43,106 bases of DNA from an uncultured Bacillales bacterium (GTDB taxonomy: Bacteria > Bacillota_I > Bacilli_A > RFN20 > CAG-826). Of the stretch, positions 15,401 through 41,330 are shown one piece after another (positions within the stretch are counted from its first letter, which is position 1; each line of letters begins with the position of its first letter). Under the pieces are notes generated by a model that worked only from the letters and a program-made list of their open reading frames with translations, was not told where the DNA came from and made no database searches. The stretch lies in assembly GCA_946630435.1 (NCBI GenBank), contig CAMOYS010000002.1, positions 1 to 43,106 on the forward strand, written 5' to 3'. The position numbers were made by a program, and so were the translations under genes.

Positions 15401-15607
15401 TAAATCAACACTTGCCACCGAATAGGCGGTTCCTTTTAAAATAATTTCTAAAGTTAAATGGAAGATAGCATAATCACCAGGAACAAAACTGAAATTGTAT
15501 TTGCTATCAAAATAGCGGTTAAAAGAAGCTTCATATTGTAATGAAGGGAGTTTAAACGGTTTTAGTTCATTGACTAAAGTATCAATAATGGAAGCGCGGC
15601 TTATCAT
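12488..15607 (-). CDS. SNF2/SWI2-family ATPase (DEAD-like helicase superfamily) with a long N-terminal SNF2-associated region
   Basis: Motifs I LADDMGLGKTIQ, II DEAQYIKN, III LTGTPIEN, V LKAGGTGLNL and VI DPWWNVAVQDQATDRAYRIGQ lie in the C-terminal ~480 aa. The N-terminal ~560 aa have no recognisable catalytic motifs. Confidence 0.9.
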   Translation of the reverse strand: MISRASIIDTLVNELKPFKLPSLQYEASFNRYFDSKYNFSFVPGDYAIFHLTLEIILKGTAYSVASVDLEAFDSANNTRYNTYYADKLDDRYLAKSLLYYSLDKYIKDNKFINDLDLSLKEIQKKIIEENKKKFISELTKQIDLVDRTELLDDSPKVHFYPTLILDGKPVLSLKVGQSRQYSVASFKTFTSRFDEKAYYSYGKELAFTHDETILDDEAKELLKVINHLVSIDPYSPGKFLSLSDKSFKRVLEIYKGKNITIEMEGKSYTFLNRLEPLNSKIYIDKDYVLSLPFIKLDGCVIRGNYSFDFNDKTIDVLTDNEAIANLIQLIFTNEYPCIEDNIEDFKYAYILRYPDSFIISPEVADDFKFQNLLINAYFDFENNIITSREELFVNNEKISPKQLTKYNQSQYRHYQSILKNMGFVDGNLEDQSHIWNFLTSSLETLKKVADVYLSDSILNKHVSSFTPPSLRINYNNNLLDVFMENSRYSDDELLAIINGLRKKKKYILYKNQVIGLDNDASNQFLNNVDNYDLASSKELVKENHVPLYYAFKSLTNLTGLSLSEHVFEVFDQIKNFKDSSFKCGEIVGELRGYQTDGVRWLDVLYKNYLNGILADDMGLGKTIQIISFLKGEKIKGNSLIICPKTLLFNWQNEFMRFAPDMKVIPIYGSAEHRAKTISQIPMHKSTIYVSGYESVRRDEELYKDINFDTIILDEAQYIKNSKAKKSLTIYNLKSDHRFALTGTPIENSILDLWSIFNFLMPKYLIDLQTFKQNYEDNNSYINEVKRFVAPFILRRNKKDVLKDLPDKFETFVTCEMNGEQRKIYDAHVLLAKKALDDGGGAFDVLPYLMRLRQICIDPNLFVENYYGGSTKVDTLVEILNDRIKDGHRVLIFSQFVKALNLVKEKLNSLGLNYFVITGDTDGEERVRLANEFNSTKKYKVGLVSLKAGGTGLNLVGADVVIHLDPWWNVAVQDQATDRAYRIGQERNVEVIKLICEDSIEQRVVELQNIKKDLFDKVISNDDSSITSLTLEDINYILKA

Positions 15608-16919
15608 TGAGTAACTCCATAAAAGTAATTTTCACTAACTCATTATCCGGAAGAGAATTAATAATTGAAAACACTTGATTTTTTTCATCAGTATTTAAGC
15701 GATTATTTTTCGCAAGTTTATATAAGGTTTGCACTAAAAGAGCTTCGTTATTTTCTTTAATACATTTCTTAACAATAAATGAAATTCTTAATAATCTTTC
15801 TAAGACAGAATTAGTGCTTTCTTGAATTGCTAATAAGACATCTTTTGTAGTAATAACCCTATCAGAAGTCCCTTCTTTTACGAATAAAGGATAATTATCA
15901 ACATAAACTAAATTAGCAGTCTTATCATCTAGTTTATCAACCGCATATTTTAATAAATGTTTACTTGCAAAAGCTTCAAATAGTTGATCTTTAATAAACT
16001 TAATATGCGGATAATACTTATCAAAATGGAACGCAATAAAAGGTAAAGTAGTTTTGTTACTAATAACATCTGGATTTATCACTCTATAATCCTTTTCGAG
16101 ATAGCTTTCATAAAAAGATGCAACACTTGGTAAATTAATATATTTAGTATCGTTAATAGCTTTTATAAATGGGACACTATTAGTTGGGTCAAATTGAATA
16201 ATCTTACTAGCAGCGCTTTTAATTCTTGGATATAAAGAAAGCATCTTGATGATGAAAGCTGCTTTTTTAACATCAGGATTTAATTCCTTAATTAATTCAC
16301 CAAAATCTCTAATAGATAAAGGCTTAAGAATATCTAAAAGATCATCAAGTTTAGTTAAAGAATCAAAAGAGCAATCGTCATTCGCGTATATTAAATTTAG
16401 TAAATTTTCTTTATAATTAATTAGTTCGACAAGGTATTTACTTCTAACATATTCCTTAAACTCTACTTTGTTTTTGTTCATATAAAGAAGCATCGCTAAC
16501 GCATGAACACAATTTGCTTTATCTTTGCAATCACAGCTAGTAGAAAGAACACCATTACTATATTCAACAATAGGATGGTAGATGCTTTCCGCTCTAACTG
16601 TACCTTCGAAAACACCATTAATTGGTTTACAGATTTCTAAGACATGATTGTTTTTTGCTAGATCAATTGCTCTATTAAAGTCATCTGGTTTAAATAAACC
16701 GACATAGGCACCGCGCTTTAAAACATCTTCAAAAGACATTTTAGACATATCTTCAATTGAACAATTATTATCGACAAATGAACCTAAAAGGTTCTTTTGA
16801 TCATAATATGATTTAAAAGACACCCGATAATTCACATTATAGGAGCCAACGATGATTCCTATACCGAAATTTGGGTGTCTAATTAATGTCCCGATAGGTA
16901 GGTTTTTAAATTTTTCCAC
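15582..16919 (-). CDS. SWIM zinc-finger domain protein
   Basis: CDCKDKANCVHALA fits the SWIM CxCx(n)CxH signature. 445 aa. The 3' end overlaps the SNF2 start by 26 nt. Confidence 0.8.
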   Translation of the reverse strand: MEKFKNLPIGTLIRHPNFGIGIIVGSYNVNYRVSFKSYYDQKNLLGSFVDNNCSIEDMSKMSFEDVLKRGAYVGLFKPDDFNRAIDLAKNNHVLEICKPINGVFEGTVRAESIYHPIVEYSNGVLSTSCDCKDKANCVHALAMLLYMNKNKVEFKEYVRSKYLVELINYKENLLNLIYANDDCSFDSLTKLDDLLDILKPLSIRDFGELIKELNPDVKKAAFIIKMLSLYPRIKSAASKIIQFDPTNSVPFIKAINDTKYINLPSVASFYESYLEKDYRVINPDVISNKTTLPFIAFHFDKYYPHIKFIKDQLFEAFASKHLLKYAVDKLDDKTANLVYVDNYPLFVKEGTSDRVITTKDVLLAIQESTNSVLERLLRISFIVKKCIKENNEALLVQTLYKLAKNNRLNTDEKNQVFSIINSLPDNELVKITFMELLNDKPRFHY

Positions 16920-20274: not shown

Positions 20275-20880
20275 ATGCCAAGAACAAAAGAACAATGTCA
20301 GAAAATTAAAGAACGTAGAAAAGAAGCGATAAAAGCCGCTGGTTTAAGACTTTTTGCTATAAATGGATATAAATCGGTCACAATTGATGACGTTATGGAT
20401 GAGGTTAATTCCGCTCATTCGCTTTTCTATCATTATTATTCAAGCAAAGAAGAGCTATTTAGAGACATCATGCACGGAATTGAAAATCATTTACAAAGTG
20501 TTTTTGAGGGAATTTCTTTCGATAAAAAAGCTATTCTTATTATTGAAGATTTAATTGATAAACTATATGAGCTTCTTTCTAAAAAACAAAGTGCATATGA
20601 AGTATACTTGCTATTAACTCTTCATTACCGTTTTGAAGATTTACCTCAAGCAAGAGAAACAGACCACAAGATTGCTGTTTGGAATTATCTTTATAAAATG
20701 ATTGAAAAGGGGCAAGAAGAAGGAGATATTTCTAAAGGAAACATTGGTGAGTACACTGTTGCACTATTCTCGATAATTCTTGGTCTTGCTTATAAAGGCA
20801 TGTTTGATAAAGATAAAGACTTATCACCAGATAAATCAATAATTATGAATTTAATATTAAAAGGAAAGGAGACTGAATAA
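20275..20880 (+). CDS. TetR/AcrR-family transcriptional regulator
   Basis: N-terminal HTH AAGLRLFAINGYKSVTIDDVMDEVNSAHSLFYHYYSSKEELF. 201 aa. The stop overlaps the next ATG (TAATG). Confidence 0.85.
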   Translation: MPRTKEQCQKIKERRKEAIKAAGLRLFAINGYKSVTIDDVMDEVNSAHSLFYHYYSSKEELFRDIMHGIENHLQSVFEGISFDKKAILIIEDLIDKLYELLSKKQSAYEVYLLLTLHYRFEDLPQARETDHKIAVWNYLYKMIEKGQEEGDISKGNIGEYTVALFSIILGLAYKGMFDKDKDLSPDKSIIMNLILKGKETE

Positions 20881-26542: not shown

Positions 26543-28222
26543 TTATTTCATGAATTCGTTAATCGTTTTAACGTATTTATTAAGGTGTTCTTCACCTAAC
26601 GCAAAGACATAATATTTAATCTTTGGTTCAGTTCCTGATGGACGAATAGTAATTGTTTCACCATCTTTAAGGAATAATTTAATAACGTTAGATTTTGGTA
26701 AATTAGTTGGTTCTTTATGATCTTTGAAATGGATAAAGCCTTCTTGATAATCACCGATATGGTCAATTTCTCCAAATAATTCGTGAGCTTTATTACCCCT
26801 AAAGGAATCCATAATAGCAAGAATCTTTTGTTTGCCTTCAACACCACTAAGTTCAAAAGCAAGTGTCGCGGTTTTGAAATCGCCAAATTCTTTATAAAGT
26901 TCAGTTAATCTATCAAACAATGTCTTGCCTTCATGTTTATATTTGTTAGCCATTTCGGCAACAAGTAAGCAAGCATTAACCGCGTCTTTATCACGAACAT
27001 CAATATTAGTAAGATAGCCACAGGATTCCTCGAATCCCAATAAATATCTTTCTACTTCACCTTTTTGTTCAAGGAAGAAGATTTGTTCACCAATGAATTT
27101 AAAACCAGTTAAAACTTCATTAACCTGGACACCATATTGTTTAGCCATAACGTTAACCATATCGCTAGAAACGATGGTTTTAACAACGACTGGTACTTTT
27201 GGTAAGGTGCCATTAGCTTTCTTAACATGATAAATAAAGTCAAATAAGAGAATACCAACTTCATTGCCAGTTAAAATAACAGGTTTTCCATTTTGATTAA
27301 CAACGACACCAACTCTATCACTATCAGGATCGGTAGCGAGTAAAACATCATCATTATTTTTAAGCATTAATTCGATACCAAGTTTTAAGGCTGGTTCCAT
27401 TTCTGGGTTTGGATATGGACAAGTTGGGAAATCGCCATTTGGTTTAGCTTGTTCGTTAACAACATCAACATTGAAATTGGTTTTTCTTAAAACAGTAGTA
27501 ACGCATCTATAACCTGCACCATAAAGTGGAGTGTATGCTATATTAAGAATTCTTTTACTATTATCTAATGAACATTTAAGAGTGGAATCAAAGTAATCAG
27601 ATATGAGTTTTTCATCAATAAAATTAATCTTTCCACGGACTACTAATTTATCAAAATCCCCATAGCAAATCCCCTTAAATGGTGATAATGATTGAATTTG
27701 TTCATAGACAGCATTAGCGGCATCAATTGTTAATTGGCAGCCATCGCTTCCATAAACTTTATAGCCATTATATTTAGATGGATTATGAGAAGCAGTAACA
27801 ACAATACCTGCATCACACTTTAAATATCTAACTGCATAAGATAGAGCCGGAGTAGGCATTAATTCTTTATAAATATAAACAGTAATATTATTACTTGCTA
27901 AAACGTTAGCAGCTTCTAAAGCAAAATTACGAGAGTTATTTCTACTATCATAGCCAATAGCAACGGAATTAGTCCTTCTTTGTTTTAAAAGGTATTGGGC
28001 TAAGCCTTGAGTGGCTCTTCTAATAACGAAACGGTTCATGCGGTTTGTACCAACACCCATGACACCTCTTAAACCGCCAGTTCCGAATTCTAAATCAGAA
28101 ATAAAGCGATCAGTAATTTCGTTTTCATTGTCTTTAATAAATATTAATTCAGCTTTTTCATCGCTTGATAAAGATGGCTCATTTAGCCATAAGTTGTATC
28201 TTTGTTCGACTTCTTTAAGCAT
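26543..28222 (-). CDS. alpha-D-phosphohexomutase (phosphoglucomutase/phosphomannomutase)
   Basis: Active-site TASHNPSKYNGYK, metal loop DPDSDR, sugar loop GFEESCG. 559 aa. RBS AAGAGGAG. Confidence 0.9.
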   Translation of the reverse strand: MLKEVEQRYNLWLNEPSLSSDEKAELIFIKDNENEITDRFISDLEFGTGGLRGVMGVGTNRMNRFVIRRATQGLAQYLLKQRRTNSVAIGYDSRNNSRNFALEAANVLASNNITVYIYKELMPTPALSYAVRYLKCDAGIVVTASHNPSKYNGYKVYGSDGCQLTIDAANAVYEQIQSLSPFKGICYGDFDKLVVRGKINFIDEKLISDYFDSTLKCSLDNSKRILNIAYTPLYGAGYRCVTTVLRKTNFNVDVVNEQAKPNGDFPTCPYPNPEMEPALKLGIELMLKNNDDVLLATDPDSDRVGVVVNQNGKPVILTGNEVGILLFDFIYHVKKANGTLPKVPVVVKTIVSSDMVNVMAKQYGVQVNEVLTGFKFIGEQIFFLEQKGEVERYLLGFEESCGYLTNIDVRDKDAVNACLLVAEMANKYKHEGKTLFDRLTELYKEFGDFKTATLAFELSGVEGKQKILAIMDSFRGNKAHELFGEIDHIGDYQEGFIHFKDHKEPTNLPKSNVIKLFLKDGETITIRPSGTEPKIKYYVFALGEEHLNKYVKTINEFMK

Positions 28223-28245
28223 GGATATCTCCTCTTTTCGACAAT

Positions 28246-28274
28246 ATTGTATATTTGTATAGTTTTAATTACAA
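28246..28274 (-). promoter_or_regulatory. candidate internal promoter in front of the phosphohexomutase gene
   Basis: Minus strand: TTGTAA (28269-28274), 17-nt spacer, TACAAT (28246-28251). Confidence 0.3.
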
Positions 28275-28287
28275 GTAATTAGCTCAG

Positions 28288-29361
28288 CTAAATATATTTA
28301 TTGTTATCAACACCTTTAAGTTTATTAACGACATCTTTAACTTCGTCGATATGATCTTTTTTCGCAATTAAGATGACATCATTAGTATTAACAATAACCA
28401 TATCTTCTAAACCAATAGTAACAAACATCTTCTTAGTAGAAGAAACAATGGTTGTGTTTTTAGTATTATAATTCAAAACTTTAGCGCGTTTAGCAATGTT
28501 CCCGTTTTCATCTTTTTGATGATGTCTATCAATTGCTAACCAGCTGCCTAAGTCATCCCATTCAAATGTTCCTTTAGTAACATAAATGTTATCGGCTTTT
28601 TCCATAACACCATAGTCAATGGAAATCTTTTCTAAACTAGCAAATGTGGTTGCATAGTTTTGATAGAATTCAAGTTTAGGAAGTTTAAATAAGTTATCTA
28701 ATGTTTCATATTGTTCTGGCATATATTTTTGGAAAGCATGCATCATTGTGGAGAGCTTATAAATAAACATTCCCGCATTCCATAAATATCCACCATTTTT
28801 AACGTATTTTTTAGCCACTTCTAAGGATGGTTTTTCCTTAAAAGAGCGGACTTTATATAGATTATTTTCGACTTCTTCACCTTCTTCAATATAGCCAAAG
28901 CCAGTGTCTGGGTGAGAAGGGTTAATACCGATTGTAACGATAGCGTCGTTATTCTCTAAGAACTTGGTAGCCTTCTCAATTAGTTCAACATATTTCTTAT
29001 CATCATCAATATATTGATCACTTGGAATAGTTACTACGACAACATCTTGGTTATATCTATCTTGAATATAACGAAGGGCTAAATTAATCGCAGGAGCGGT
29101 ATTTCTACCTACTGGTTCTAAAATAACGTTTTCGTCTTGAATTTCAGGTAAAGAAAGTAAAACAGCTTCTTTATATTTTTCACCGGTAACAACATAAATA
29201 TCTTTATAAGGGGTAAGAGATTTAACTCTTTCAGCAGTATCAAAAATTAATGGGTGTCCACTACCAGAAAGATCTAAGAATTGTTTAGGTTTAGCTGTAC
29301 GGCTTTCAGGCCAGAAGCGTTCACCAACACCACCAGCGATAATTAATGTAATAATTTTCAT
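28288..29361 (-). CDS. sugar-1-phosphate nucleotidyltransferase, mannose-1-phosphate guanylyltransferase-like (no cupin/PMI domain)
   Basis: MKIITLIIAGGVGERFWPESRTAKPKQFLDL matches the GDP-mannose pyrophosphorylase N-terminal signature (AGGxGxRxWPxSRxxxPKQF). Only 28 nt after the upstream gene, with RBS AAAGGAAAA. Confidence 0.8.
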   Translation of the reverse strand: MKIITLIIAGGVGERFWPESRTAKPKQFLDLSGSGHPLIFDTAERVKSLTPYKDIYVVTGEKYKEAVLLSLPEIQDENVILEPVGRNTAPAINLALRYIQDRYNQDVVVVTIPSDQYIDDDKKYVELIEKATKFLENNDAIVTIGINPSHPDTGFGYIEEGEEVENNLYKVRSFKEKPSLEVAKKYVKNGGYLWNAGMFIYKLSTMMHAFQKYMPEQYETLDNLFKLPKLEFYQNYATTFASLEKISIDYGVMEKADNIYVTKGTFEWDDLGSWLAIDRHHQKDENGNIAKRAKVLNYNTKNTTIVSSTKKMFVTIGLEDMVIVNTNDVILIAKKDHIDEVKDVVNKLKGVDNNKYI

Positions 29362-29389
29362 ATCTTATTTTCCTTTCGCCTAAAAATTA

Positions 29390-31108
29390 TTAATCAGTTA
29401 CAACGACATCATCACAAGTATCATCGAGAAGCTGACCAAGTACTTTATTATAGATTTCTGAATCAATTTCAAAACGTTTAAATCTAGCGTGATAAATCAA
29501 ACGAAATGCTGCAAATTTCTTACATATCTTCCACTCTTTTTCTAAATCCTTACCTTCAAAATAGACTGGGAAGAATGCATCATAAAACTTCTTCATAGTA
29601 GCTCTATCAAAGTGAAATATTTGCATACAGCGTTCATCTGAAACTGCATGAGCAAATAAATACATTGAACCAATATCATAATATGGCGAACCGATAGCAA
29701 GATCTGCTAAGTCAATCATGATATTATCACCTTTATCAGTCATAACTGCGTTTCCTGTATGGAAGTCACCATGAATTAATGTTTTAGCGTCTTTATATTC
29801 AAGGATTAAGGCTTTTAATTTTTCAACAATATCTTTATCTAATTTAGGCGCTAAAATGTTCACAAAACCTAATTCGATTTCACTTTGATCTGGGAAAATT
29901 CCTGGAAGAGGAGTGATTTTATGGAATTCACGAGTCATTAAGGCAAAACGTTTTGCGATTTCTGGAATCTTTTCAGGTTCATTAGCGACTGCTCTAGAGA
30001 ATGAAATCTTATTAACAACTCTTTCAAATGAGAAACCAACACGATCGCCAAAGTAACAGATTTCACCACTAATAGGAGTGTTAACGCCAGTAAGCAAAGC
30101 TTCTTTAGCCATAATCTTCTCTTTTTCAATCATGTTAACTGGAATTTTGTTAGAGAAGAGTTTAATCATTATATCTTCGTCTTTTTCATCAAAATATGTT
30201 GTAGAAGTATAGCCATCGCCAGAAATATACATTCCATCAAGTGAGCCATGGCCATATTTCTTAACAAGTGGAATCAAAGAAGAAATACCATTATCTTCAA
30301 GTTTAGAGGCAATATTTGGACTTACTAAACGTAAGAACATTCGATAACCATTTTGGTGTAAACGAATTAAAGTTCTCATTGCACCAAAAGATAAACCAGA
30401 TAATTTGTCGCAGTTAATAATGTTTTCTTTACCTTTATCTAAAACTTTTTCAATTTCAAATGAATCTTCTTTAGAAACATAACCTTCAAGAAGAATTTCA
30501 CTATCAGTTTTTGTGATTTTAAATTCGATATAGCGGTCAAAGACATCGTGGACATTTTGTTCAAATTCTTTAAAGGCATAATATTCTTTTAATTCACTTA
30601 AAGCGTCCACTAAAGAAAGATAATACCAAGCGTGATTTCTTGGATCATTATCATGGAATCTTTCCCAAATCTTATTGCCAATTTCAAGGTAGTCTTGTTT
30701 AATAGCTCTAATGTTAGATAATTTATCGCCTAAGGCCACCATTTTGGCTTCTTTAGAGGCATTCTTAAGGTGATTTAGGGTTGCTTGTTTTTTATCTTTC
30801 CAAGAAACAGCATTGCCATCTAAATCAACATCATAAGAAGTCTCAGATTTTACAATTGAGGCAACTTCTGCGCCGAATTCTTGCTCAATGTCTTCAATTT
30901 TAATAGGAGTATCTTCAGCAACATCATGAAGGACTGCCGCGGCTAAAAGAGTTTGATCATTACTCATTGTGCTAACGATACTTAATGCTTCAAGAGGATG
31001 AACGATATAAGGGAATCCTTTGCCTCTTCTTTCCGTATTAGCGTGAGCTTTTGTTGCGAATATAATCGCTCTATCTAATAAATTTGAATCAATATATTTT
31101 TCTGCCAT
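29390..31108 (-). CDS. three-domain protein: RelA/SpoT-type HD (alarmone hydrolase-like), STAS-like domain, APH-fold phosphotransferase
   Basis: aa 10-180: AHANTERRGKGFPYIVHPLEA...AAVLHDVAEDT (RSH hydrolase HD motifs). aa 195-282: ILLEGYVSKEDSFEIE...NCDKLSGLSFGAMRTLIRL...FLRLVSPNIASKLEDNGISSLIPL aligns with the STAS protein of the same operon. aa ~300-572: Brenner motif HGDFHTGN (29750-29773) and IDLADLAIGSPYYDIG, as in APH(3')-type kinases. Confidence 0.75.
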   Translation of the reverse strand: MAEKYIDSNLLDRAIIFATKAHANTERRGKGFPYIVHPLEALSIVSTMSNDQTLLAAAVLHDVAEDTPIKIEDIEQEFGAEVASIVKSETSYDVDLDGNAVSWKDKKQATLNHLKNASKEAKMVALGDKLSNIRAIKQDYLEIGNKIWERFHDNDPRNHAWYYLSLVDALSELKEYYAFKEFEQNVHDVFDRYIEFKITKTDSEILLEGYVSKEDSFEIEKVLDKGKENIINCDKLSGLSFGAMRTLIRLHQNGYRMFLRLVSPNIASKLEDNGISSLIPLVKKYGHGSLDGMYISGDGYTSTTYFDEKDEDIMIKLFSNKIPVNMIEKEKIMAKEALLTGVNTPISGEICYFGDRVGFSFERVVNKISFSRAVANEPEKIPEIAKRFALMTREFHKITPLPGIFPDQSEIELGFVNILAPKLDKDIVEKLKALILEYKDAKTLIHGDFHTGNAVMTDKGDNIMIDLADLAIGSPYYDIGSMYLFAHAVSDERCMQIFHFDRATMKKFYDAFFPVYFEGKDLEKEWKICKKFAAFRLIYHARFKRFEIDSEIYNKVLGQLLDDTCDDVVVTD

Positions 31109-31109
31109 T

Positions 31110-32189
31110 TTATTCTTTTAACACTCCTGATTTTCTAGCAATTTCACAAATGCGTTTTGCTTGTCTAGCGTTGCTCTTTCTTTCACCATAAATAAGACCT
31201 AAGAATAAGCCAACGCCAACTTCACCACCACCCGCTTTAAGAATGTAGGTAATGAGAAGATAATATAAAGCGGTTGTAGAAGACATAATATCGATATCAG
31301 TATCACTGAAGGCTTTAACCGCTAAAGTATAAGCGTCATCAGCGTATGATTTAAATATCTCATCTAATTGACCTAAATTAGTTATATTCATCTTCTTTAA
31401 TGCAATTAAATATGGGGTAGTTGAAACCGTTGTGATTTCCATATTATTAATCTTCGCAATACGTTCACTAAGAATAAGGAAGTGGCCCATACCAAGATAT
31501 TCTCTAAAGGAATCAGCGTTAAGTTCAACATCATTAAGATTACCTGATTCAACAAGGCTCTTAACGACACGACGATATTCAGATAAGTTAAATCTTAATT
31601 CAGAGAATTGCTTATCCGCTAATTCAAGAAGGCCAGCTAAACTAGATAAAGTTCTAAGTGATTCACGAGGAATTTCAACATCGCTTTTATAACCAGTATC
31701 ATGGTAGATAGAAGCCCAAACATGTTGAAGCGCGGTTCTCATTTGAAGTTCGAATCTAAGTTCATTTACTAAAGGATGTTTTTCATCATAATAAAGGGAC
31801 TTAGGAATTCGACATATATAGTGAAGAGACATATAACCAAAGCGGTCAACATCATGAAGTTTTCTTTTATCAACTGTATTTTCCCAGTCAATTTCAAAAA
31901 CATCACTTATAATGCCTGCGAATTTATCAACTTCATCAGTATAAAAGGTAACAACACGAGCACCGACTAAATCGGTTAAGTCTGATAAAGAGGTGTATTT
32001 ATATCCTTTTCTTTCGAGTTTTCCTTCTAAAGAATCACGTTTTTTAATACGAGATTCGACAGAATTGATAAACATGTCATGCTCACTAACGATTTTATTT
32101 AGTGCTTTATCAATGATGTCTTTTTGAATTTTTAGTGATTCATAAGCGGCATCAAATTCTTCAAGAATCATTTGAGCTTTAATGTCCAT
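31110..32189 (-). CDS. RelA/SpoT-domain small alarmone synthetase with a ~150-aa C-terminal extension
   Basis: Synthetase motifs SRIKKRDSLEGKL, DLVGARVVTF, RFGYMSLHY and ELQMRTALQHVWASIYHDTGYK are all present. RBS GGAGG precedes the ATG. Its stop lies 1 nt before the HD-protein start. Confidence 0.85.
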   Translation of the reverse strand: MDIKAQMILEEFDAAYESLKIQKDIIDKALNKIVSEHDMFINSVESRIKKRDSLEGKLERKGYKYTSLSDLTDLVGARVVTFYTDEVDKFAGIISDVFEIDWENTVDKRKLHDVDRFGYMSLHYICRIPKSLYYDEKHPLVNELRFELQMRTALQHVWASIYHDTGYKSDVEIPRESLRTLSSLAGLLELADKQFSELRFNLSEYRRVVKSLVESGNLNDVELNADSFREYLGMGHFLILSERIAKINNMEITTVSTTPYLIALKKMNITNLGQLDEIFKSYADDAYTLAVKAFSDTDIDIMSSTTALYYLLITYILKAGGGEVGVGLFLGLIYGERKSNARQAKRICEIARKSGVLKE

Positions 32190-32204
32190 GGTTTATCCTC
32201 CTTT

Positions 32205-34082
32205 TTATAAGTTCTTTTTAATTGTTAAAATGTTTTGATTGTTTTTGTATTCGTAAGAAATTTCATCCATTGATTGTTTAACAATAAAGATACCTAAACC
32301 ACCAATTTGTCTTTCACTAGCGTCTAAAGTGATATCAGGATTTTCGAGTTCAAGAGGGTTAAATGGTCTTCCATTATCCACGAATGAAATTGAAACAGAG
32401 ACAGGTTCTTCTTTAAGTTCAATACGAACGATAGCTTTACCAACTTCTGGATTATAAGCAAATTTAACAATATTAGAGAAGAGTTCATCAATCGCGACAT
32501 TGATTTGATAAATCGCTTTCTTGTTATTAGTAACTTTGCTTAAGAAATCATTAACAAATTCGGTAACAACATCGAGATTTTCCGATAAGGAGTCCACTGA
32601 AATCTCTTTTTTAAGGATTGGTGTGCCTTTGAAAAGAACGCTGATAATAGTGATATCATCAAATTGATCTTCACCATTAACAAACTTATTAATTTCAGCT
32701 TGAACAACCTTAGTTAATTCTTCAGGATTTAAGTCAGGATTTGCGTTAAGAATATTGAGTAATCTTTCTTCGCCAAATATTTCTTCGTTTGCGTTAGTGG
32801 CTTCAGTAACCCCATCAGTGTAGAAGAATATTTGATCTCCCGGAAGAAGTTTAAAGGATGTGGCTTTAAATTTAGTTTCTTCTAAACCACCTAAAACAAA
32901 TCCACGAGGAAGTTTAACATATTCGTATTTATTGTTTCTTTTAATAAGAATTGGATTATGACCTGCGTTAGCGACGATTAATTCACCAGTTAAAATATTT
33001 AATCGAGCGGTAACTGCTGTAACAAACAATCCACTTTGATTGAATTGATATAGTTCTTGGTTAGCAAGTTCGAGGGCCTTTTCTAAATAGATACCTGTTT
33101 TTGTAACGGATTTAAGAAAAGTTTTTGTCCCCATCATCTCTAAAGCAGCAGGAACACCTTTACCACTTACATCACCAATAGTGAAAATTAATTCATGAGG
33201 ATTACACATATAGAAGTCATAGAAATCTCCACCAACTTCTTTAGCAGGATCCATAATCGCATATAGTTCAAATTCGCTTGTGTTAGGAAATTCGCGAGGA
33301 AGAATGCCAACTTGAATGTTAGAAGCAATCCCTAGCTCTGCAGCAATCTTTTCTTTATCTTTTGTAAAATCACTATCTTTCTTAAGAAGTTTTTCAGTAC
33401 GAATAGTGAGTTGAAGAGAAATAAAGAACATTAAGGTGAGTAGGACCATTCTCGACATGTAATAATAGACAACTATCTTAACATATCTATTCTCGCCATA
33501 TTGCATAAGGCTATTAAGGTATTCAATTCTCTCATTTACATCTGATGTTTCAATTTTCATTGATTCATCAATACCAGTGTTATCCATACCACCCATTAAA
33601 TATGGGTCCCATTCACCAAATAGCATCGCAAAATACATGCAAAGTAGCATCATGATTGATACGGAGATAAAGATAGCTAAGCTAGTTCTTGGACTATAAT
33701 AGTGGCACGCTAAAACAATAATAACAGCCCAGCCTAAGAGCGAATGCTTAGGAATGATTACATTAATAACGGAAACAACAAAGATAAATAAAGAGAGTAA
33801 GTAATACTTAAACCAAGGTTGTTTAATGTATTTTGTTTTATAGAAGAATAACGGGGTTAATAGTAGAACCATTGAGATAGGAATCACAATGTTAAGGATG
33901 GTCATTATTGATTGCATCCCAAGTTCAAAAACACCAGTTATATAGAAAACCCATATAAGTAGCATTAAGAAAGAGCCAAAAGCACAACCAAATGCTAACG
34001 CTTTATTAGCGGAATATTCATTCTCTTGTAATGTTCTAGAATCAATAGCACGCTTTTTGAAAACAAGAAACGGATTCTTCAT
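32205..34082 (-). CDS. polytopic membrane sensor fused to a PP2C/SpoIIE phosphatase and an RsbW/SpoIIAB-type serine kinase (HATPase)
   Basis: About 6 TM helices in aa 27-225. PP2C motifs GGDFYDF, IGDVSGKGVPAAL, FYTDGVTEA and DDITII in aa 245-485. HATPase N-box DELFSNIVKFA, DNGRPF and GGLGIFIVKQ in aa 495-625. Confidence 0.85.
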   Translation of the reverse strand: MKNPFLVFKKRAIDSRTLQENEYSANKALAFGCAFGSFLMLLIWVFYITGVFELGMQSIMTILNIVIPISMVLLLTPLFFYKTKYIKQPWFKYYLLSLFIFVVSVINVIIPKHSLLGWAVIIVLACHYYSPRTSLAIFISVSIMMLLCMYFAMLFGEWDPYLMGGMDNTGIDESMKIETSDVNERIEYLNSLMQYGENRYVKIVVYYYMSRMVLLTLMFFISLQLTIRTEKLLKKDSDFTKDKEKIAAELGIASNIQVGILPREFPNTSEFELYAIMDPAKEVGGDFYDFYMCNPHELIFTIGDVSGKGVPAALEMMGTKTFLKSVTKTGIYLEKALELANQELYQFNQSGLFVTAVTARLNILTGELIVANAGHNPILIKRNNKYEYVKLPRGFVLGGLEETKFKATSFKLLPGDQIFFYTDGVTEATNANEEIFGEERLLNILNANPDLNPEELTKVVQAEINKFVNGEDQFDDITIISVLFKGTPILKKEISVDSLSENLDVVTEFVNDFLSKVTNNKKAIYQINVAIDELFSNIVKFAYNPEVGKAIVRIELKEEPVSVSISFVDNGRPFNPLELENPDITLDASERQIGGLGIFIVKQSMDEISYEYKNNQNILTIKKNL

Positions 34083-34083
34083 A

Positions 34084-34398
34084 TTAGTCCTCTTCGATAG
34101 TTAAAATGCTACTGAAACCAGTCATGTCGAAGGTTTCCATAATTAAGTCGTTAACATTTCGAAGAATCATCTTGCCTTGTTTTGACATTGTTTTATGGGT
34201 GATTAAAAGGATTCTTAAACCTGCTGAGGAAAGATAATCAAGATCCTTAAAATCAAAGTATAAAGTTTTAACTCCTTCAAGCGCACCATTAAGTGCGGCA
34301 TCAAGTTCAGGAGCGGTAGATGTATCAAGCCTACCTCCTAAAGAAATAGTTAAAACGTCGTTTTCTCTTTTTAAATCAATTTTCATATTGTTCTCCAC
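34084..34398 (-). CDS. STAS-domain protein (RsbV/SpoIIAA-like anti-sigma-factor antagonist)
   Basis: 104 aa. LTISLGGRLDTSTAPELDAAL...FDFKDLDYLSSAGLRILL...MILRNVNDLIMETFDMTGF carries the conserved phosphorylatable Ser motif. RBS GGAG. Its stop lies 1 nt before the next ATG. Confidence 0.85.
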   Translation of the reverse strand: MENNMKIDLKRENDVLTISLGGRLDTSTAPELDAALNGALEGVKTLYFDFKDLDYLSSAGLRILLITHKTMSKQGKMILRNVNDLIMETFDMTGFSSILTIEED

Positions 34399-34410
34399 TT
34401 TAATGTTTAA

Positions 34411-34439
34411 ATTATCTATTAAAGATAAAGATTTTTCAA
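34411..34439 (-). promoter_or_regulatory. candidate sigma-A promoter of the STAS/PP2C/alarmone operon
   Basis: Minus strand: TTGAAA (34434-34439), 17-nt spacer, GATAAT (34411-34416). It lies between the upstream terminator and the STAS start codon. Confidence 0.4.
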
Positions 34440-34483
34440 TTCATTGTTTGTTTAATGTTCATTTTTTATTAATGAAAAATGAT

Positions 34484-34523
34484 GAAAATAAAATAGGAAC
34501 TCGTCCAATCGAGGCGAGTTCCT
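34484..34523 (-). terminator. Rho-independent terminator after the lipoprotein gene
   Basis: AGGAACTCG (34495-34503) / CGAGTTCCT (34515-34523), extendable to 11 bp with one G.U pair. Followed on the minus strand by ATTTTATTTT. Confidence 0.65.
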
Positions 34524-34585
34524 ATATGAAATTTAATTATTTTGCAATTTTGGAATTGGTTTGATAATTTGTTAAGAAAATTTAC

Positions 34586-36844
34586 TTATTGAGGTAATGA
34601 TAAATTGGACATTCCAAGGACAATAGCCATTCCCATGTAATAGATTGTAACATGATCATTAGCCTTTTGAATGAAGGAATCAGCGGCTTCAACTTTCTCA
34701 TAATCTGTACCACCTTTTTGAGTGTTTTCAACAGCAGATTGAGTCATTCTTTGTAAACCATTTGCTGGAACACCGTCATAGTAAGCATAACCACCAGCAG
34801 TTTCAAAGACAGGAGCAGATGCAGAATTAAGTCCTCTAATTAAAGCATGATTTCTTACTTGTTCAACATAAGATGGTGTACCTTCAGAAAGTAAACTAAG
34901 GATAACAAGTTGGAATTGAGCAGGATCGCTAATTTGATATTTAGCCATTAATTCAGCCACTATTTTAGAGGCTTCTTCATCACCAGTTTCTGCTTTTTGT
35001 AAGTTTTCGGCAATGTATTTAGCTTCATTAAAGTTTGTGTTATCTGGTTGACTATAATTGAATTTATCAACTGTTTCACTATTCTTAATAATAACTTCAC
35101 CACAAGTTGGAACATTAGAAATACCAGCGACACTACCAGACTTATTAAAGGCAACGAAATTTAAGAATGTCTTTTCTGGAACTGGAAATAATGATGGGAT
35201 TCCTGTTTCTGGTGGGAAAGCTTTTGGATTAACAATTGTTGGATTGCCATTGACATCATAAGCGAATGATTTACCGAATGGAACGAATAAATCAGACATA
35301 GCTTTGATTTGTGGTGCTAATACATTAGCGCCAAATTGGACAAACCAAGCTTCTTCACCGGTAATATAGTTAACTAAACTACAATCTTCAAAGACGCATT
35401 TACCAACGTTACCATTTGGAGTGTAGCAAGGAACATTTACGTCTTCCGCAAATTGGAATTGGCTGACTGTTTCAGCACCTTCTTCAGGAATATCAGTATG
35501 GTCTTGAATAACAATTGGACCACCACATTTAGAGAATTCACTATTCTTAGCATTAATTAATGAACCAGCGTTATAGAAGAAAGAATTATAGTTGTCATAA
35601 CTCTTACATTTATCAACTTCAAAGACAAATTCATTTGAACAATGCTCTGCAAAATAGTTGATAAAGTTAGAACGAGAAATAACGTTATAAGCAGTAGTCT
35701 TAATAGCATCATAACCAGCTTTATTAAAGATTAAACCACCAGCATATTTGTTGTCTTCATTGCTTTGAGCAAGAGGAGCGTTACCAGTAATATTAATGTT
35801 TCTAACATTAAAGATACCATTTCTAGTACGAATTAAGGCTGTGTGAGATAAAGGTTTGTCAGTTTCTGTATCTTCATTACGAACATTAAGTGGTAATTGA
35901 GAGAAATCAAGTTTGAAGTAATTACCATTTAAAGTTAATTCGGTATTGGAAATATGACCATAAACGTGGGCGGTATCTTTATAAGTTCCATAATATTTTG
36001 GATCAACACCATCAGCTTCACTATAAATATATTCGCTAGGAATATCGTTAGCGGTAATTGAAATATTTTGGTGCAAGATAACTGCACTTGGATCTAATTC
36101 AGTTGACATACCGTTAGCAGTTTTAAATGCATCCCAAACATGTTTGAGACCACCAACGTTTCCTGGGTGCCAATCGTTATCAGCGACATCACCATGTCTA
36201 TCATCAAGATAACCAAGTTCTTTAGCGGTATAAGCGTTATAACCATCGATAACTTGAACTTCATAAGTAACTTTAAAGTTTTCATTAGCTTTTTGTTCAT
36301 TAGTTAAACCACCTGGCATAACAGTTACTCTAAAGGTTTTGCCAACAGCGTTAACGCCAAATTTAACGTCGCATGTTCTAGCGTTTTCAATTTTAAAGTC
36401 ATCGCTAGTAGCAGGAACAAATTCACCTTTATCGTTTTTAACAGTAAGGGAGAATTCATAATCATAATCCCATTCATCTTGATTATGTTCATTTAAGTTT
36501 TGATCAAAGACATGGAATTGTGGCTTAAAGTTAACTGCATTATCATCACCGACAAAGTAACCTTGAGTGCGGTCCATAAATTCTTCACGTTTTTCCGACT
36601 TTTCTTTAATGTTAGAAGCGTAATCAATAAAGGATTGTCTTTTAGTGACTGGAGCAGCGATTTTTAAAGTTACTTCTTCTTCACTAGTGGTAGATGTTGT
36701 TTCACTAGTAGTTTCGCTTGTTGTTTCACTTGTTGTTGTGGAAGTATCTTCACTAGAACTAGTTGGAGATGGATTTTGACCACAAGAAGCAAGGATTAAA
36801 GAAGTAACACTAAGTAGTAACAATTTATGTAATTTTTGTTTCAT
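34586..36844 (-). CDS. large surface lipoprotein (about 750 aa), function unknown, possible beta-helix-like repeats
   Basis: Start at ATG 36842-36844 (MKQKLHK...), preceded by GGAGGATATAAC. Lipobox LILASC with the Cys codon at 36782-36784, followed by an S/T/E-rich linker. NINITGN- and NGNYF-type segments hint at a parallel beta-helix, which is weak evidence. Confidence 0.8.
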   Translation of the reverse strand: MKQKLHKLLLLSVTSLILASCGQNPSPTSSSEDTSTTTSETTSETTSETTSTTSEEEVTLKIAAPVTKRQSFIDYASNIKEKSEKREEFMDRTQGYFVGDDNAVNFKPQFHVFDQNLNEHNQDEWDYDYEFSLTVKNDKGEFVPATSDDFKIENARTCDVKFGVNAVGKTFRVTVMPGGLTNEQKANENFKVTYEVQVIDGYNAYTAKELGYLDDRHGDVADNDWHPGNVGGLKHVWDAFKTANGMSTELDPSAVILHQNISITANDIPSEYIYSEADGVDPKYYGTYKDTAHVYGHISNTELTLNGNYFKLDFSQLPLNVRNEDTETDKPLSHTALIRTRNGIFNVRNINITGNAPLAQSNEDNKYAGGLIFNKAGYDAIKTTAYNVISRSNFINYFAEHCSNEFVFEVDKCKSYDNYNSFFYNAGSLINAKNSEFSKCGGPIVIQDHTDIPEEGAETVSQFQFAEDVNVPCYTPNGNVGKCVFEDCSLVNYITGEEAWFVQFGANVLAPQIKAMSDLFVPFGKSFAYDVNGNPTIVNPKAFPPETGIPSLFPVPEKTFLNFVAFNKSGSVAGISNVPTCGEVIIKNSETVDKFNYSQPDNTNFNEAKYIAENLQKAETGDEEASKIVAELMAKYQISDPAQFQLVILSLLSEGTPSYVEQVRNHALIRGLNSASAPVFETAGGYAYYDGVPANGLQRMTQSAVENTQKGGTDYEKVEAADSFIQKANDHVTIYYMGMAIVLGMSNLSLPQ
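36699..36734 (-). repeat. three imperfect tandem 12-nt units encoding a (T-T-S-E)n linker
   Basis: Plus strand reads gtttcactagta / gtttcgcttgtt / gtttcacttgtt. It translates on the minus strand as TTSETTSETTSETTS, directly after the lipobox. Confidence 0.8.
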
Positions 36845-36949
36845 GTTATATCCTCCGCGCTTTATAAGCGCCAAAAAATCATAACCCTTATTAAAAATAA
36901 AAGCAATAAATAAAGAGGATTGGAGAGAAATAATTAGAATAAAAAAATT

Positions 36950-39134: not shown

Positions 39135-41330
39135 TTAATCTTTTAAACGAGGATCATCTTCGTTATTACCGATTTTTTCCATATAGAATTCTTCGAGAGT
39201 TTTACCACTCTTTTCGATTTCTTCTAAGGTATAAACACATTCAATATGACCGTGCTTAATAATGGCGATACGGTCACAAAGTTTTTCAACAATATCAATT
39301 AAGTGAGAGGAGAAGAAGACGATATTTCCTTCTTCAGCGTGTTTTCTCATACATTCTTTAACTTGGAAAATAGAGGTTGGATCTAAACCCGTTAAAGGTT
39401 CATCAAGAATCCAAACTTTAGGATTATGGATGAGCGCGGCAATAATAGTGACTTTTTGTTTCATCCCGTGGGAATAAGTCTTAATTTTGTTATCGATATT
39501 ATCTTTGAGTTCAAATAGTTCGATATATTTAGCTAATCTAGCATCACGGTCTTCTTTACTAACTTCATAAATATCAGCGATGTAATTTAAGTATTCTCGA
39601 CCAGTTAATTTTTCATATAAAGCATAGTGATCTGGAACAAAGCCAATTAAGCTTTTGGCGTATACTGGTTGACTCTTAACGTTATAGCCACAAACATAAA
39701 TTTCCCCGCTAGTAATCGGCTGGATTCCAACAATTGACTTAATAATCGTGGATTTACCTGCCCCATTAGGACCTAAGAAACCAAACACTTCCCCACCCTT
39801 AACTACGAGGTTTGCGTCTTTAACTGCATAGTGCTTACTTAAACCATATTTTTTAGAGAAATCTTTTAACTCTAATTTAATTCCAACATTTCCTTCCATA
39901 GGTTCACTAATGCTCCTTCCATTTAAAACACTCTTAAGTGCGATTTGATCTAATTTAATGCCTTTCAACTTGAGATGTAAGGCGTAATGTCTATCAGATA
40001 TATCAAAACCAAGTTGATAAATAAACCACATTCCAAAGCCCACTAAAACATAAACGATAAAATAGATTGCTTGATATATTGGGTGGAATGTAAATTGTTT
40101 TTCGTTAATTGTAAAAGTAAAGGAAATTCTAAATATGTTTTTAGCCCATTCACCAAGTTTGTCAGCGATAAATAACGAGTTAATGAAGAAGAAATCGGTT
40201 GGATGATCAAACGCGGTGAATAATGGGTTAAGAATTAATACCGTAATAAAGTAGCCAAGGAAGGCCAAAGATGAGAAGAAATATTGTTTAAGTTTTGGTC
40301 TATCAAATAAGTGAAGTGCAACACATAGAAGTGGCATAATACACGCAATAACATGGTTATACCAGAATAAAACAATATGTGGATTAAATAAGGTTGAGGT
40401 AGATGGATAATCAGGCATTAGCATTGCTAAAGCTGCACCAAAGACATTGATAAAGTAGGTGAAATAGAATAGCCTTTTAAGCTTAAATATCATGGTTATT
40501 GGGATAATAATCATTGCCATGTTACATAAGTGGAAAGGCCATCCCCACGGATACATTAAGACATCGTATTTAGAGTAATAGAAATATCCAATCGAGGTAC
40601 CTACTGCGATAAATATTAAAGCGGCTTCAATTTTATCTTTATGCGCTTTTCTTAAACCAAAATATAAAGAAAATGGAAGAAGGATTAAGAAAAGATAGAT
40701 GAACATTCTATGAGATATTGAAAAGTTAATTGGGTGATTATAGATACTGCCTAAACCAAAGACAAACATTGGGAAACTAGCCGGCATAGTAGCAAAGTTT
40801 AATAAAACTGATACAGTAGCAACTTCCCCATAAGAATGTTTTGAGATCTTAACTTTGTAGTCTTTAAACCAATAATAAATTGAAATAGTTAAGCCTAATG
40901 CAATCTCCACTGGAAGCATGAAATATGTTAAGGAATAATTCGTATTTCCCTGCATCATTTCGAGCATTGGAAGCATTAAAAAGGTGCACACTAAAAAGAT
41001 AGGACTAGCAATAAATTTGGCATACCATTTCATCGTTTTATAATGGTAGTTTGGTCTTAAAAACAATATAAGAAGTGCCGTTAATTCAAACCAAATGGCA
41101 AAATTACCTAAGATATTTAATGGGGTGGACATTGTCCCACCGAAGTGTGCGTATATAGCAAAGTTTTCATCAATTCCCTGGACTTCAGTGTAACTAAAAT
41201 ATCTAACAGCGAAGACCGCCATTAAGATATAGGTTAAGATACGTTCAAAAATAAGTTTTCTTTTATTAACAAAAACTCCCATCAAGATGAGAGAGATAAA
41301 TAATACTCCAAAGAAAACTAAATAAATCAT
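39135..41330 (-). CDS. fusion of a ~470-aa polytopic membrane domain (unknown family) with an ABC-2/DrrA-class ATPase domain
   Basis: The C-terminal NBD has Walker A GPNGAGKST, signature-like YSHGMKQK, Walker B VWILDEPLTGLD and H-loop FSSH. The N-terminal domain has about 12 TM helices and a WPFHLCNMAM motif that I can only loosely relate to YwaF/TMEM164-like membrane proteins. Confidence 0.75.
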   Translation of the reverse strand: MIYLVFFGVLFISLILMGVFVNKRKLIFERILTYILMAVFAVRYFSYTEVQGIDENFAIYAHFGGTMSTPLNILGNFAIWFELTALLILFLRPNYHYKTMKWYAKFIASPIFLVCTFLMLPMLEMMQGNTNYSLTYFMLPVEIALGLTISIYYWFKDYKVKISKHSYGEVATVSVLLNFATMPASFPMFVFGLGSIYNHPINFSISHRMFIYLFLILLPFSLYFGLRKAHKDKIEAALIFIAVGTSIGYFYYSKYDVLMYPWGWPFHLCNMAMIIIPITMIFKLKRLFYFTYFINVFGAALAMLMPDYPSTSTLFNPHIVLFWYNHVIACIMPLLCVALHLFDRPKLKQYFFSSLAFLGYFITVLILNPLFTAFDHPTDFFFINSLFIADKLGEWAKNIFRISFTFTINEKQFTFHPIYQAIYFIVYVLVGFGMWFIYQLGFDISDRHYALHLKLKGIKLDQIALKSVLNGRSISEPMEGNVGIKLELKDFSKKYGLSKHYAVKDANLVVKGGEVFGFLGPNGAGKSTIIKSIVGIQPITSGEIYVCGYNVKSQPVYAKSLIGFVPDHYALYEKLTGREYLNYIADIYEVSKEDRDARLAKYIELFELKDNIDNKIKTYSHGMKQKVTIIAALIHNPKVWILDEPLTGLDPTSIFQVKECMRKHAEEGNIVFFSSHLIDIVEKLCDRIAIIKHGHIECVYTLEEIEKSGKTLEEFYMEKIGNNEDDPRLKD

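Follow-up and report, generated by a model that had tools for sequence, protein, structure and literature searches.

The 43,106-nucleotide contig CAMOYS010000002.1 (assembly GCA_946630435.1) of an uncultured Bacillales bacterium, referred to here as the window, carries on its minus strand four tightly packed open reading frames (ORFs), g1 to g4, in which the proteins of a partner switch are encoded together with a small alarmone synthetase (SAS) and a small alarmone hydrolase (SAH). With moderate confidence, this cassette is interpreted as a partner-switching module that lacks a sigma factor and whose output is alarmone metabolism. The interpretation builds on the identities of the encoded domains, their intact catalytic motifs, the conserved co-location of the genes in related genomes and the fusions that join some of their domains. 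The genes are separated by spacers of only 1, 15 and 1 nucleotides (nt) and specify, in order, a STAS protein, a membrane protein that unites a PP2C phosphatase with an RsbW-type kinase, a RelA/SpoT-type synthetase and an HD-domain hydrolase fused to an embedded STAS domain and an APH-fold kinase. The control of the SASs RelP and RelQ is known mainly at the level of transcription and of allosteric ligands, and the post-translational on/off switching of SASs is, to our knowledge, still largely open.

Components of the switch and of the alarmone pathway

An initial annotation of this DNA had described g1 as an RsbV/SpoIIAA-like STAS protein with an LSSAGL motif, g2 as a polytopic membrane protein combining a PP2C phosphatase with an RsbW-type kinase, g3 as a RelA/SpoT-domain SAS with intact synthetase motifs and g4 as an HD hydrolase joined to a second STAS-like domain and an APH fold. 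All four descriptions hold. Among the families it expected, STAS (in g1), SpoIIE, HATPase_c_2, RelA_SpoT, HD_4 and APH were recovered by profile scans, and only the embedded STAS domain of g4 is missed by Pfam. The gene g1 (34084-34398 in the ORF listing, with the start revised to the ATG at 34386) encodes a single-domain STAS protein of the anti-sigma-factor-antagonist type (PF01740, E = 1e-15), which also exceeds the cut-off of TIGR00377 (71.4 versus 53.45 bits). Its LSSAGL motif is located at residue 56, and the predicted phospho-acceptor is Ser58 (numbered from the GTG start), placed in the S-x-G-L context of the SpoIIAA/RsbV type. Across 20 homologues from Bacillota and Bacteroidota, S57, S58, G60, L61 and R62 are invariant. 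The gene g2 (32205-34082) starts with a polytopic membrane region (residues ~25-227; 33402-34010) of about 6-7 hydrophobic segments in a Kyte-Doolittle plot, which is presumed to serve as the signal input. It is followed by a PP2C/SpoIIE phosphatase domain (residues 295-482; 32637-33200; PF07228, E = 2.2e-47, profile positions 2-189 of 192) with its four acidic motifs at residues 284, 303, 421 and 475, and by an RsbW/SpoIIAB-type HATPase_c_2 serine kinase domain (residues 500-623; 32214-32585; PF13581, E = 2.8e-19, profile positions 5-127 of 127) with the N, G1 and G2 boxes at residues 533, 569 and 594. Every motif quoted for g2 in the initial annotation could be located. The NCBIfam models for RsbW and SpoIIAB match the kinase domain at E = 2e-10 and 1.5e-7, respectively, both under the equivalog cut-offs.

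The synthetase gene g3 (31110-32189) encodes 359 amino acids. Its catalytic domain (residues 1-215; 31545-32189) matches PF04607 at E = 1.6e-15 (57.8 bits, above the cut-off of 27), and the residues of the ATP-binding, catalytic and acceptor-site motifs are invariant in 55 homologues (R47, K49, S53 and K57; D73, G76 and R78; G118, Y119, S121 and H123; E147, Q149 and R151). A profile of the g3 family matches the crystal structures of RelP and RelQ at E = 5e-15 and the toxSAS CapRel at E = 8e-3, and the AlphaFold model of g3 (mean predicted local distance difference test score, pLDDT, of 90.1) superposes on SAS1/SAS2 of Bacillus subtilis (6fgk, 5dec) with a template modelling (TM) score of 0.85, compared to 0.35 for CapRel. 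By both measures g3 resembles RelP and RelQ more closely than CapRel, the one toxSAS compared. Because of this similarity, (p)ppGpp or pGpp would be the most likely product, with (pp)pApp or a product of another acceptor as a further possibility.

Even though g3 shares the catalytic fold and the synthetase motifs with RelP and RelQ, it differs from them in its length, in an extra C-terminal domain of about 140 amino acids and in being encoded beside a hydrolase and signalling proteins. Against the YjbM/RelP equivalog model NF053588 it reaches 54.7 bits, far below the cut-off of 320, and it departs from the single-domain architecture of that family. The C-terminal domain (residues 220-359; 31113-31532) is helical and modelled by AlphaFold with a pLDDT of ~90. 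A search of 1.84 billion representative proteins returned 66 matches to it, mostly in the C-terminal half of proteins of 230-420 amino acids or in short fragments, and the domain is thus mostly confined to this SAS family. No Pfam match was obtained at E values up to 5 for the window protein and 20 homologues, and Foldseek searches with the whole g3 model returned matches to the catalytic domain only. PUF4 and the thermosome, the only matches to profiles of the PDB, were rejected as spurious relatives, as neither showed a significant stretch of similarity. Additionally, no support was found for the C-terminal domain as a mimic of a sigma factor. It is regarded as a candidate regulatory or docking domain.

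The AlphaFold model of g4 (29390-31108; mean pLDDT 91.7) comprises three domains. The first is an HD-type SAH domain (residues 1-193; 30530-31108) that matches PF13328 (HD_4) at E = 6e-18 (65.5 bits, above the cut-off of 27.2), superposes on the SAH RelH (7qoc/7qod) with TM-scores of 0.85-0.87 and carries the invariant motifs H61, D62, E65 and D66 and D128-N132. The second is the embedded STAS domain (residues 197-283; 30260-30520), which has no Pfam match in the window protein itself; it was identified by hhalign comparison of a profile of 20 homologues with the g1 family (probability 98.3%, E = 2.1e-14, 80 columns), by the alternating strand-helix fold of the model, as expected of a STAS domain, and by precomputed PF01740 matches in four g4 homologues (P0136, P0139, P0148 and P0161). 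In this domain, a Phe aligns with Ser58 of g1 and the family consensus reads N-F-S-G-I-R, so that it is not phosphorylatable at the canonical site. The third is an APH-fold kinase domain (residues 293-572; 29393-30232; PF01636, E = 1.2e-12, 48.6 bits, above the cut-off of 23.2), in which K316, the HGDxHxGN motif (446-453; H446, G447, D448, H450, G452 and N453) and the metal-binding D466 are invariant. Foldseek aligned it with APH(2'') and APH(3') at TM-scores of 0.5-0.66. The match of g4 to TIGR02172 (E = 3e-47, 161 bits) lies below the cut-off of 228 for membership in that family.

The three switch protein families and the S-x-G-L phospho-serine motif are shared with the RsbU/RsbV/RsbW-SigB and SpoIIE/SpoIIAA/SpoIIAB-SigF systems, but the cassette proteins score far below all cut-offs of the RsbW, SpoIIAB, SpoIIAA and SpoIIE equivalog models and, in contrast to both systems, no sigma factor is found in the window or recurs in ~60 related loci. 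A Pfam scan of all 35 window ORFs of at least 100 amino acids recovered no Sigma70-family protein. The only DNA-binding protein found in the window is a TetR regulator (20275-20880), which is located ~8.5 kb away beside ABC exporter genes, in agreement with the initial annotation, which had placed neither a sigma factor nor another DNA-binding protein in the unit or next to it. Sigma factors are equally absent from four related loci annotated with Pfam and from the 25 commonest Pfam families among 139 neighbour ORFs of the ~60 loci, and a clustering of the neighbour ORFs gave the same result. A cognate sigma factor that consistently accompanied the orthologues would speak against an alarmone output; none recurs in the SAS neighbourhoods.

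Fusions comparable to g2 are known from two systems. SypE of Vibrio fischeri combines an RsbW-like kinase and a PP2C phosphatase in one polypeptide that acts on the free STAS protein SypA, and the output of this switch is SypA and not a sigma factor (PMC8256260). However, SypE is cytoplasmic and contains a central receiver domain, whereas g2 has a polytopic membrane N-terminus followed by the PP2C and then the kinase domain, and the target of SypA relates to biofilm formation, whereas the genes linked to the cassette are those of alarmone enzymes. Rv1364c of Mycobacterium tuberculosis likewise fuses a PP2C and an RsbW-like kinase domain (PMC7647112; also named in the initial annotation), but has its STAS domain in the same chain and is linked to sigma factor regulation. 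In the cassette, the STAS protein is free and a second, non-phosphorylatable copy resides in the hydrolase.

Conservation of the association in related genomes

The g3 family is large, with 5892 matches among the candidates scored, which are full-length and ~50% identical. A scan in which each GTDB species was represented by a single genome yielded 80 SAS loci (numbered with the prefix L), which were searched with each domain of the window, and components encoded on the same strand were counted in those 50 loci whose SAS gene is flanked on both sides by 4 kb or more. An HD hydrolase accompanies the SAS in 43 of these 50 loci, a STAS protein in 37 (74%), an HATPase_c_2 kinase in 36, a PP2C phosphatase in 29 and an APH domain in 21, compared to one locus each (2%) for ManC and PGM, two neighbours of the cassette that served as controls. 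STAS and kinase occur together in 36 loci, are both absent from 11 and are discordant in 3. Among all 80 loci, STAS is encoded directly upstream of the SAS in 26, and HD or HD-APH directly downstream of it in 52. The loci belong to Bacilli, Erysipelotrichaceae, Acholeplasmatales, Clostridia (Anaerovoracaceae, Christensenellaceae, Lachnospiraceae and Mogibacterium), Bacteroidales, Fibrobacter and Akkermansia/Verrucomicrobiales, and thus cover the four phyla Bacillota, Bacteroidota, Fibrobacterota and Verrucomicrobiota. According to the annotation of the records, nearly all of them originate from rumen, horse or other gut samples. The closest genome match, L002, is the rumen metagenome-assembled genome of the uncultured Erysipelotrichaceae bacterium RUG13318, whose SAS is 97% identical to g3.

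The linkage of STAS, kinase and PP2C with SAS and SAH is therefore kept in relatives across four phyla, with the order of the genes shuffled. The order STAS, PP2C-kinase, SAS, HD is found in the window and in L003, many other Bacillota loci show STAS, SAS, HD and then PP2C-kinase, many Bacteroidales loci show kinase, PP2C, STAS, SAS and HD-APH, and some loci (L018, L059) contain STAS, SAS and HD alone. That the association is kept though the gene order is rearranged is a signature of functional coupling and counts against simple inherited synteny. The PP2C and kinase domains are fused in some loci and separate in others, and the hydrolase occurs as HD alone (~190 amino acids), as HD-APH (~470 amino acids) and, in many homologues, as HD-STAS-APH (~560-570 amino acids). 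In the Bacilli locus L084, HD_4, SpoIIE and Y_phosphatase3 domains are combined in one protein of 782 amino acids. The HD-STAS-APH and HD_4-SpoIIE-Y_phosphatase3 fusions support physical coupling. The sensor region of the PP2C proteins varies from the polytopic membrane type of the window to dCache/PDC plus HAMP in Bacteroidales and 5TMR-LYT in Clostridia; such extracytoplasmic or membrane sensor domains are typical of environmental signalling. Most Fibrobacter loci (L042, L044, L046, L049, L064, L078 and others) comprise just the HD-SAS pair and lack partner-switching genes in the vicinity; the HD gene is located upstream of the SAS gene and a convergent PGM/GlmM-like gene downstream of it. 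One Fibrobacter locus, L063, differs and contains SAS, HD-APH, kinase and STAS.

Adjacency of SAS and HD is the most conserved feature of the loci (43/50), and in Fibrobacter the pair occurs on its own. This is the observation to which an alternative, considered improbable, appeals: the SAS-SAH pair would be a toxSAS-type toxin/antitoxin or abortive-infection module, with the partner switch as its trigger or safety catch, and would stop growth instead of signalling, either by making (pp)pApp and depleting ATP or by pyrophosphorylating tRNA. Operons of SAS and SAH are known as type IV toxin-antitoxin systems (PMC7229694), and in the cassette the HD hydrolase gene begins 1 nt past g3, so that a potentially neutralising gene is adjacent. 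The catalytic domain of g3 also matches the PADLOC defence candidate PDC-S33 (E = 1e-17), the ~50% identity across phyla in one habitat suggests horizontal spread, and the variable accessory enzymes are reminiscent of the make-up of conflict systems. A close parallel is the toxSAS FaRel with its SAH antitoxin ATfaRel, where synthetase and HD hydrolase are likewise encoded side by side by genes that often overlap or abut (PMC7229694). However, in contrast to FaRel/ATfaRel, the cassette includes no type II antitoxin gene, is tied to sensor phosphatases and is absent from phage and plasmid collections: 50,697 phage and 72,556 plasmid records contained no full-length relatives and only distant matches to the catalytic domain. 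In addition, the catalytic domain of g3 is RelP/RelQ-like and matches the toxSAS CapRel only weakly, the neighbouring genes are of the housekeeping type and neither mobile-element nor defence genes adjoin the cassette, and the sensors are of extracytoplasmic ligand-binding types. No PADLOC match was obtained for g1, g2 and g4; the identification of the cassette with a known defence system was rejected, the domain-level match of g3 to PDC-S33 being the sole PADLOC match. As a separate observation, the SAS proteins are ~47-54% identical across the four phyla from herbivore guts (L002-L081), compared to just 30-40% identity between the co-located STAS proteins of Bacteroidales and that of the window, which suggests that the enzyme is under strong constraint or has been transferred horizontally throughout the habitat.

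Further enzymes recur in the SAS loci. A lipid/NAD-kinase-like domain of the YegS/DAGK type (DAGK_cat plus YegS_C) is fused to HATPase_c_2 in a Bacteroidales protein of 434 amino acids (L076:12488-13792, by Pfam), a putative fusion of the same kind and length is encoded in a second Bacteroidales locus (L080:12309-13613), and stand-alone genes for YegS-like kinases are found in 9 of the 50 loci. The PTP-like Y_phosphatase3 (PF13350, E = 4e-56) is present in 14 of the 50 loci; it is encoded within the SAS cluster in L019:3978-4802, L082:7171-7995 and ~18 more loci, always on the same strand, and in five loci (L029, L031, L047, L050 and L075) it occurs without any PP2C. In these five loci the PTP replaces the PP2C and may serve as an alternative phosphatase for the STAS switch, while the APH-fold kinase and, elsewhere, the YegS/DAGK-like kinase and Y_phosphatase3 would be optional accessories. 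The recurrence of small-molecule-kinase folds (APH as well as YegS/NAD-kinase-like) and of Y_phosphatase3, which in some loci are fused to HD or kinase domains, raises a different explanation, also given little probability, in which SAS, HD, APH or YegS-like kinase and PTP would make, modify and remove another phosphorylated nucleotide or metabolite, perhaps a new messenger or a compound related to NADP(H), under the control of the partner switch. The low score of g3 against the RelP equivalog and its unique C-terminal domain would fit such a role, and SAHs can be metabolically promiscuous (PMC9765508). On the other hand, synthetase and hydrolase both carry canonical motifs and agree in structure with bona fide (p)ppGpp enzymes, and the accessory enzymes are optional. 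Proteins of the APH fold include protein kinases, and the presence of the PTP in loci devoid of PP2C fits the role of a protein phosphatase.

Several observations weigh against alarmone metabolism as the output of the switch. In about one quarter of the SAS loci, among them seven Fibrobacter loci with HD and SAS only, the same strand carries no switch gene in the vicinity, the embedded STAS domain is limited to some lineages, no fusion involving the SAS itself was seen in the surveyed loci, and the reading calls for contacts among the cassette proteins that we infer. Moreover, a reverse scan of metagenome contigs for g1-like STAS proteins (48-64% identity) gave 26 loci flanked by 3 kb or more of sequence, of which 17 include a kinase and 14 a PP2C phosphatase, but just 2 a SAS. 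Since some SAS loci lack switch genes, the SAS-SAH pair is taken as the evolutionary core; since g1-like STAS proteins mostly occur without a SAS, the switch cassette represents a generic, re-usable regulator with SAS/SAH as one of several clients. The same numbers are compatible with a merely incidental co-location, in which STAS and PP2C-kinase would regulate something else, for instance the APH kinase or a sigma factor encoded elsewhere, and SAS and SAH would be chance neighbours of the switch genes. Four loci (L097, L119, L157 and L162) encode STAS-APH proteins (ORFs of 393 amino acids) with PP2C-HATPase and free STAS but no SAS, and the search for sigma factors covered the window and the related loci rather than the rest of the genome. 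Incidental co-location is nevertheless unlikely, with a probability that is judged to be slight, as STAS is kept in 74% of the SAS loci over four phyla despite rearrangement while other neighbours reach 2%, HD is fused both to PP2C and to STAS, and the intergenic spacers measure 1-15 nt.

The g1-like cassettes, which are often without an adjacent sigma factor, have a range of other partners, including MatE-HATPase_c_2 fusions, STAS-APH fusions (~393 amino acids), an HD-CE-methyltransferase protein and a large protein that appears glycosyltransferase-like as judged from its sequence alone. Proteins of ~580 amino acids adjoin the g1-like STAS in L086:8337-10088, L090:8319-10073, L104:8368-10137, L113:5978-7705 and L091:12754-14535. 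The Pfam-scanned L090 protein is a MatE-family transporter with a C-terminal, RsbW-like HATPase_c_2 domain, and the other four look alike by eye, which suggests that an efflux transporter may be controlled by a partner switch or may itself control one. In L099, L124, L135 and L150, an HD gene is followed by STAS-APH, and the STAS-APH unit looks like an independent client of g1-like cassettes.

Boundaries of the cassette and other genes of the window

The initial annotation had also proposed a promoter ahead of four minus-strand genes with spacers of 1, 15 and 1 nt, and its coordinates were confirmed. The window has a G+C content of ~32%. Upstream of g1, the minus strand carries in succession the terminator of the preceding lipoprotein gene, the promoter-like site and a GGAG Shine-Dalgarno sequence 6 nt ahead of the ATG at 34386. 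The terminator (34485-34523) was recognised by direct reading of the sequence as an intrinsic one; read from 34523 to 34485, its 9+2 bp stem, AGGAACTCG/CGAGTTCCT, includes an inner CC/GG pair and leads into the T-run ATTTTATTTT. It was overlooked by the hairpin scanner because its loop exceeds 8 nt, and it marks the 5' boundary of the cassette. The candidate sigma-70-type promoter (34411-34439; TTGAAA-17 nt-GATAAT), a consensus match, sits between this terminator and g1 and agrees with the consensus at 10 of 12 positions, the top score within 28000-35000; compared to shuffled sequence, promoter-like sites are no commoner in the cassette region. Translation of g1 probably starts at the ATG at 34386 and not at the listed GTG at 34398, because the ATG is preceded by the Shine-Dalgarno sequence and gives a protein of 100 amino acids, the length seen in homologues. 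As the -10 box ends at 34411, a start at the GTG would leave nearly no leader.

At the 3' end, no terminator was found in the 28-nt gap between g4 and a gene for a ManC-like nucleotidyltransferase (guanylyltransferase; 28288-29361, minus strand), which is followed by a PGM/PMM gene (26543-28222, minus strand), both assigned by Pfam. The first terminator-like hairpin on the minus strand past g4 lies at 26529-26504, beyond the PGM gene. Transcripts of the cassette might therefore run on into ManC and PGM in the source organism, and these GTP-consuming sugar-nucleotide genes may be co-transcribed with the cassette there and in L001 and L002, but not elsewhere. As members of the module they were rejected, since they are kept behind the cassette only in L001 and L002, the two closest relatives. 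An Rfam scan of the whole window returned no RNA family at threshold, and an explanation by a riboswitch or leader is thus unsupported.

Four further features of the window, all on the minus strand, can be mentioned. A small MazG-like nucleoside triphosphate pyrophosphohydrolase gene (2466-2843), of a family that acts on nucleotide pools, is unlinked to the cassette. A gene for an SNF2-family helicase (1039 amino acids, SNF2_assoc) lies directly downstream of that for a SWIM zinc-finger protein (445 amino acids), and the two ORFs overlap (12488-16919). A lipoprotein-like protein of 762 amino acids (34586-36874) contains a (TSET)n low-complexity run past its signal peptide and no Pfam domain. 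Finally, the ORF at 39135-41330 joins a TMEM164-family membrane domain to an ABC ATPase, which is an uncommon combination.

Proposed control of alarmone synthesis and its implications

Control of a nucleotide-messenger synthase by a partner switch is established for SiaABC/SiaD (PMC7647112, PMC8457831). The SiaABCD system of Pseudomonas aeruginosa comprises the PP2C phosphatase SiaA, the kinase SiaB, the antagonist-like protein SiaC and the diguanylate cyclase SiaD, and unphosphorylated SiaC binds and activates SiaD (PMC7647112, PMC8457831). The cassette resembles it in combining, within one operon and without a sigma factor, a membrane PP2C, a kinase, a phosphorylatable antagonist-like protein and a nucleotide-messenger synthase. 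It differs in that the enzyme is a RelA/SpoT-type synthetase with a dedicated HD hydrolase instead of a GGDEF cyclase, and no GGDEF protein was recovered in the Pfam scan of the 35 window ORFs. Furthermore, g1 is a classical PF01740 STAS protein in which the acceptor is a Ser, in contrast to Thr68 as the phosphorylated residue of SiaC, and kinase and phosphatase are fused in g2, unlike SiaA and SiaB. The PP2C domain of g2 matches the NCBIfam SiaA model NF038263 at E = 7e-13, but with 48 bits against a cut-off of 700 it is not a SiaA orthologue. The initial annotation knew of no partner-switching module for a SAS/SAH pair. Consistently, no published description of a module joining partner-switching or STAS proteins to an alarmone synthetase was found among open-access papers and bioRxiv, and neither of the two surveys of RelA/SpoT homologues, from 2011 and 2020, mentions STAS or anti-sigma proteins in its main text. 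This suggests that, even though partner switching with non-sigma outputs, including the synthesis of cyclic di-GMP (c-di-GMP), is already established, its link to SAS/SAH is undescribed.

From the domain composition and the conserved linkage, a scheme of phosphotransfer, binding partners, direction of regulation and nucleotide product can be inferred for the cassette as an alarmone-controlling partner switch. In this scheme, the membrane region of g2 would respond to a membrane or extracytoplasmic signal and set the balance between the PP2C and RsbW-type kinase activities, which in turn would set the phosphorylation of Ser58 in g1. Unphosphorylated g1 would then engage a partner and shift the balance between synthesis of the alarmone, most likely (p)ppGpp or pGpp, by the RelP/RelQ-like g3 and its breakdown by the HD hydrolase g4. 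Two routes, which do not exclude each other, can be envisaged for this last step. In the first, g1 would bind the synthetase g3, plausibly via its C-terminal domain, in parallel to the activation of SiaD by SiaC; points noted for this route are the position of STAS directly upstream of the SAS in 26 of the 80 loci and the loci that consist of STAS, SAS and HD only. In the second, g1 and the embedded STAS domain of g4, which cannot be phosphorylated at the canonical site, would be alternative partners of the kinase domain, and the role of the sigma factor would fall to the hydrolase or the APH domain. Proteins in which HD is fused to STAS or to PP2C favour the second route, but it cannot be the general mechanism, as the embedded STAS domain occurs only in a subset of the loci. 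Here, one part of the earlier proposal has to be qualified. That a nucleotide-messenger output is gated by STAS proteins is backed by the conserved linkage and the fusions, but gating through phosphorylation of the embedded STAS domain is at odds with the Phe at its phospho-site.

A more far-reaching hypothesis, which is speculative and rather doubtful, extends the second route to other enzymes. The RsbW-type kinase would switch between two STAS domains, the free g1 and a non-phosphorylatable pseudo-substrate STAS carried by an enzyme (HD-STAS-APH or STAS-APH), and an anti-sigma kinase would thereby directly gate enzymes that act on small molecules; the set of SAS, HD, APH or YegS and PTP would make and erase a pyrophosphorylated nucleotide, possibly an undescribed one, upon an extracellular cue. 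A stringent-type response would then be driven by a membrane sensor and not by the ribosome.

If the cassette does couple partner switching to alarmone metabolism, the (p)ppGpp family would join c-di-GMP (SiaD, HsbD) among the outputs of partner switches that work without a sigma factor. The conserved, uncharacterised C-terminal domain of g3 would then represent a concrete candidate for the docking site. Many gut anaerobes would be able to raise or lower their alarmone levels upon an external or membrane cue without the involvement of ribosome-bound Rel. Given the abundance of the module among Bacteroidales, Bacilli, Clostridia, Fibrobacter and Akkermansia of the rumen and hindgut, it may be relevant to the way in which communities that degrade fibre pass into slow growth and out of it again.

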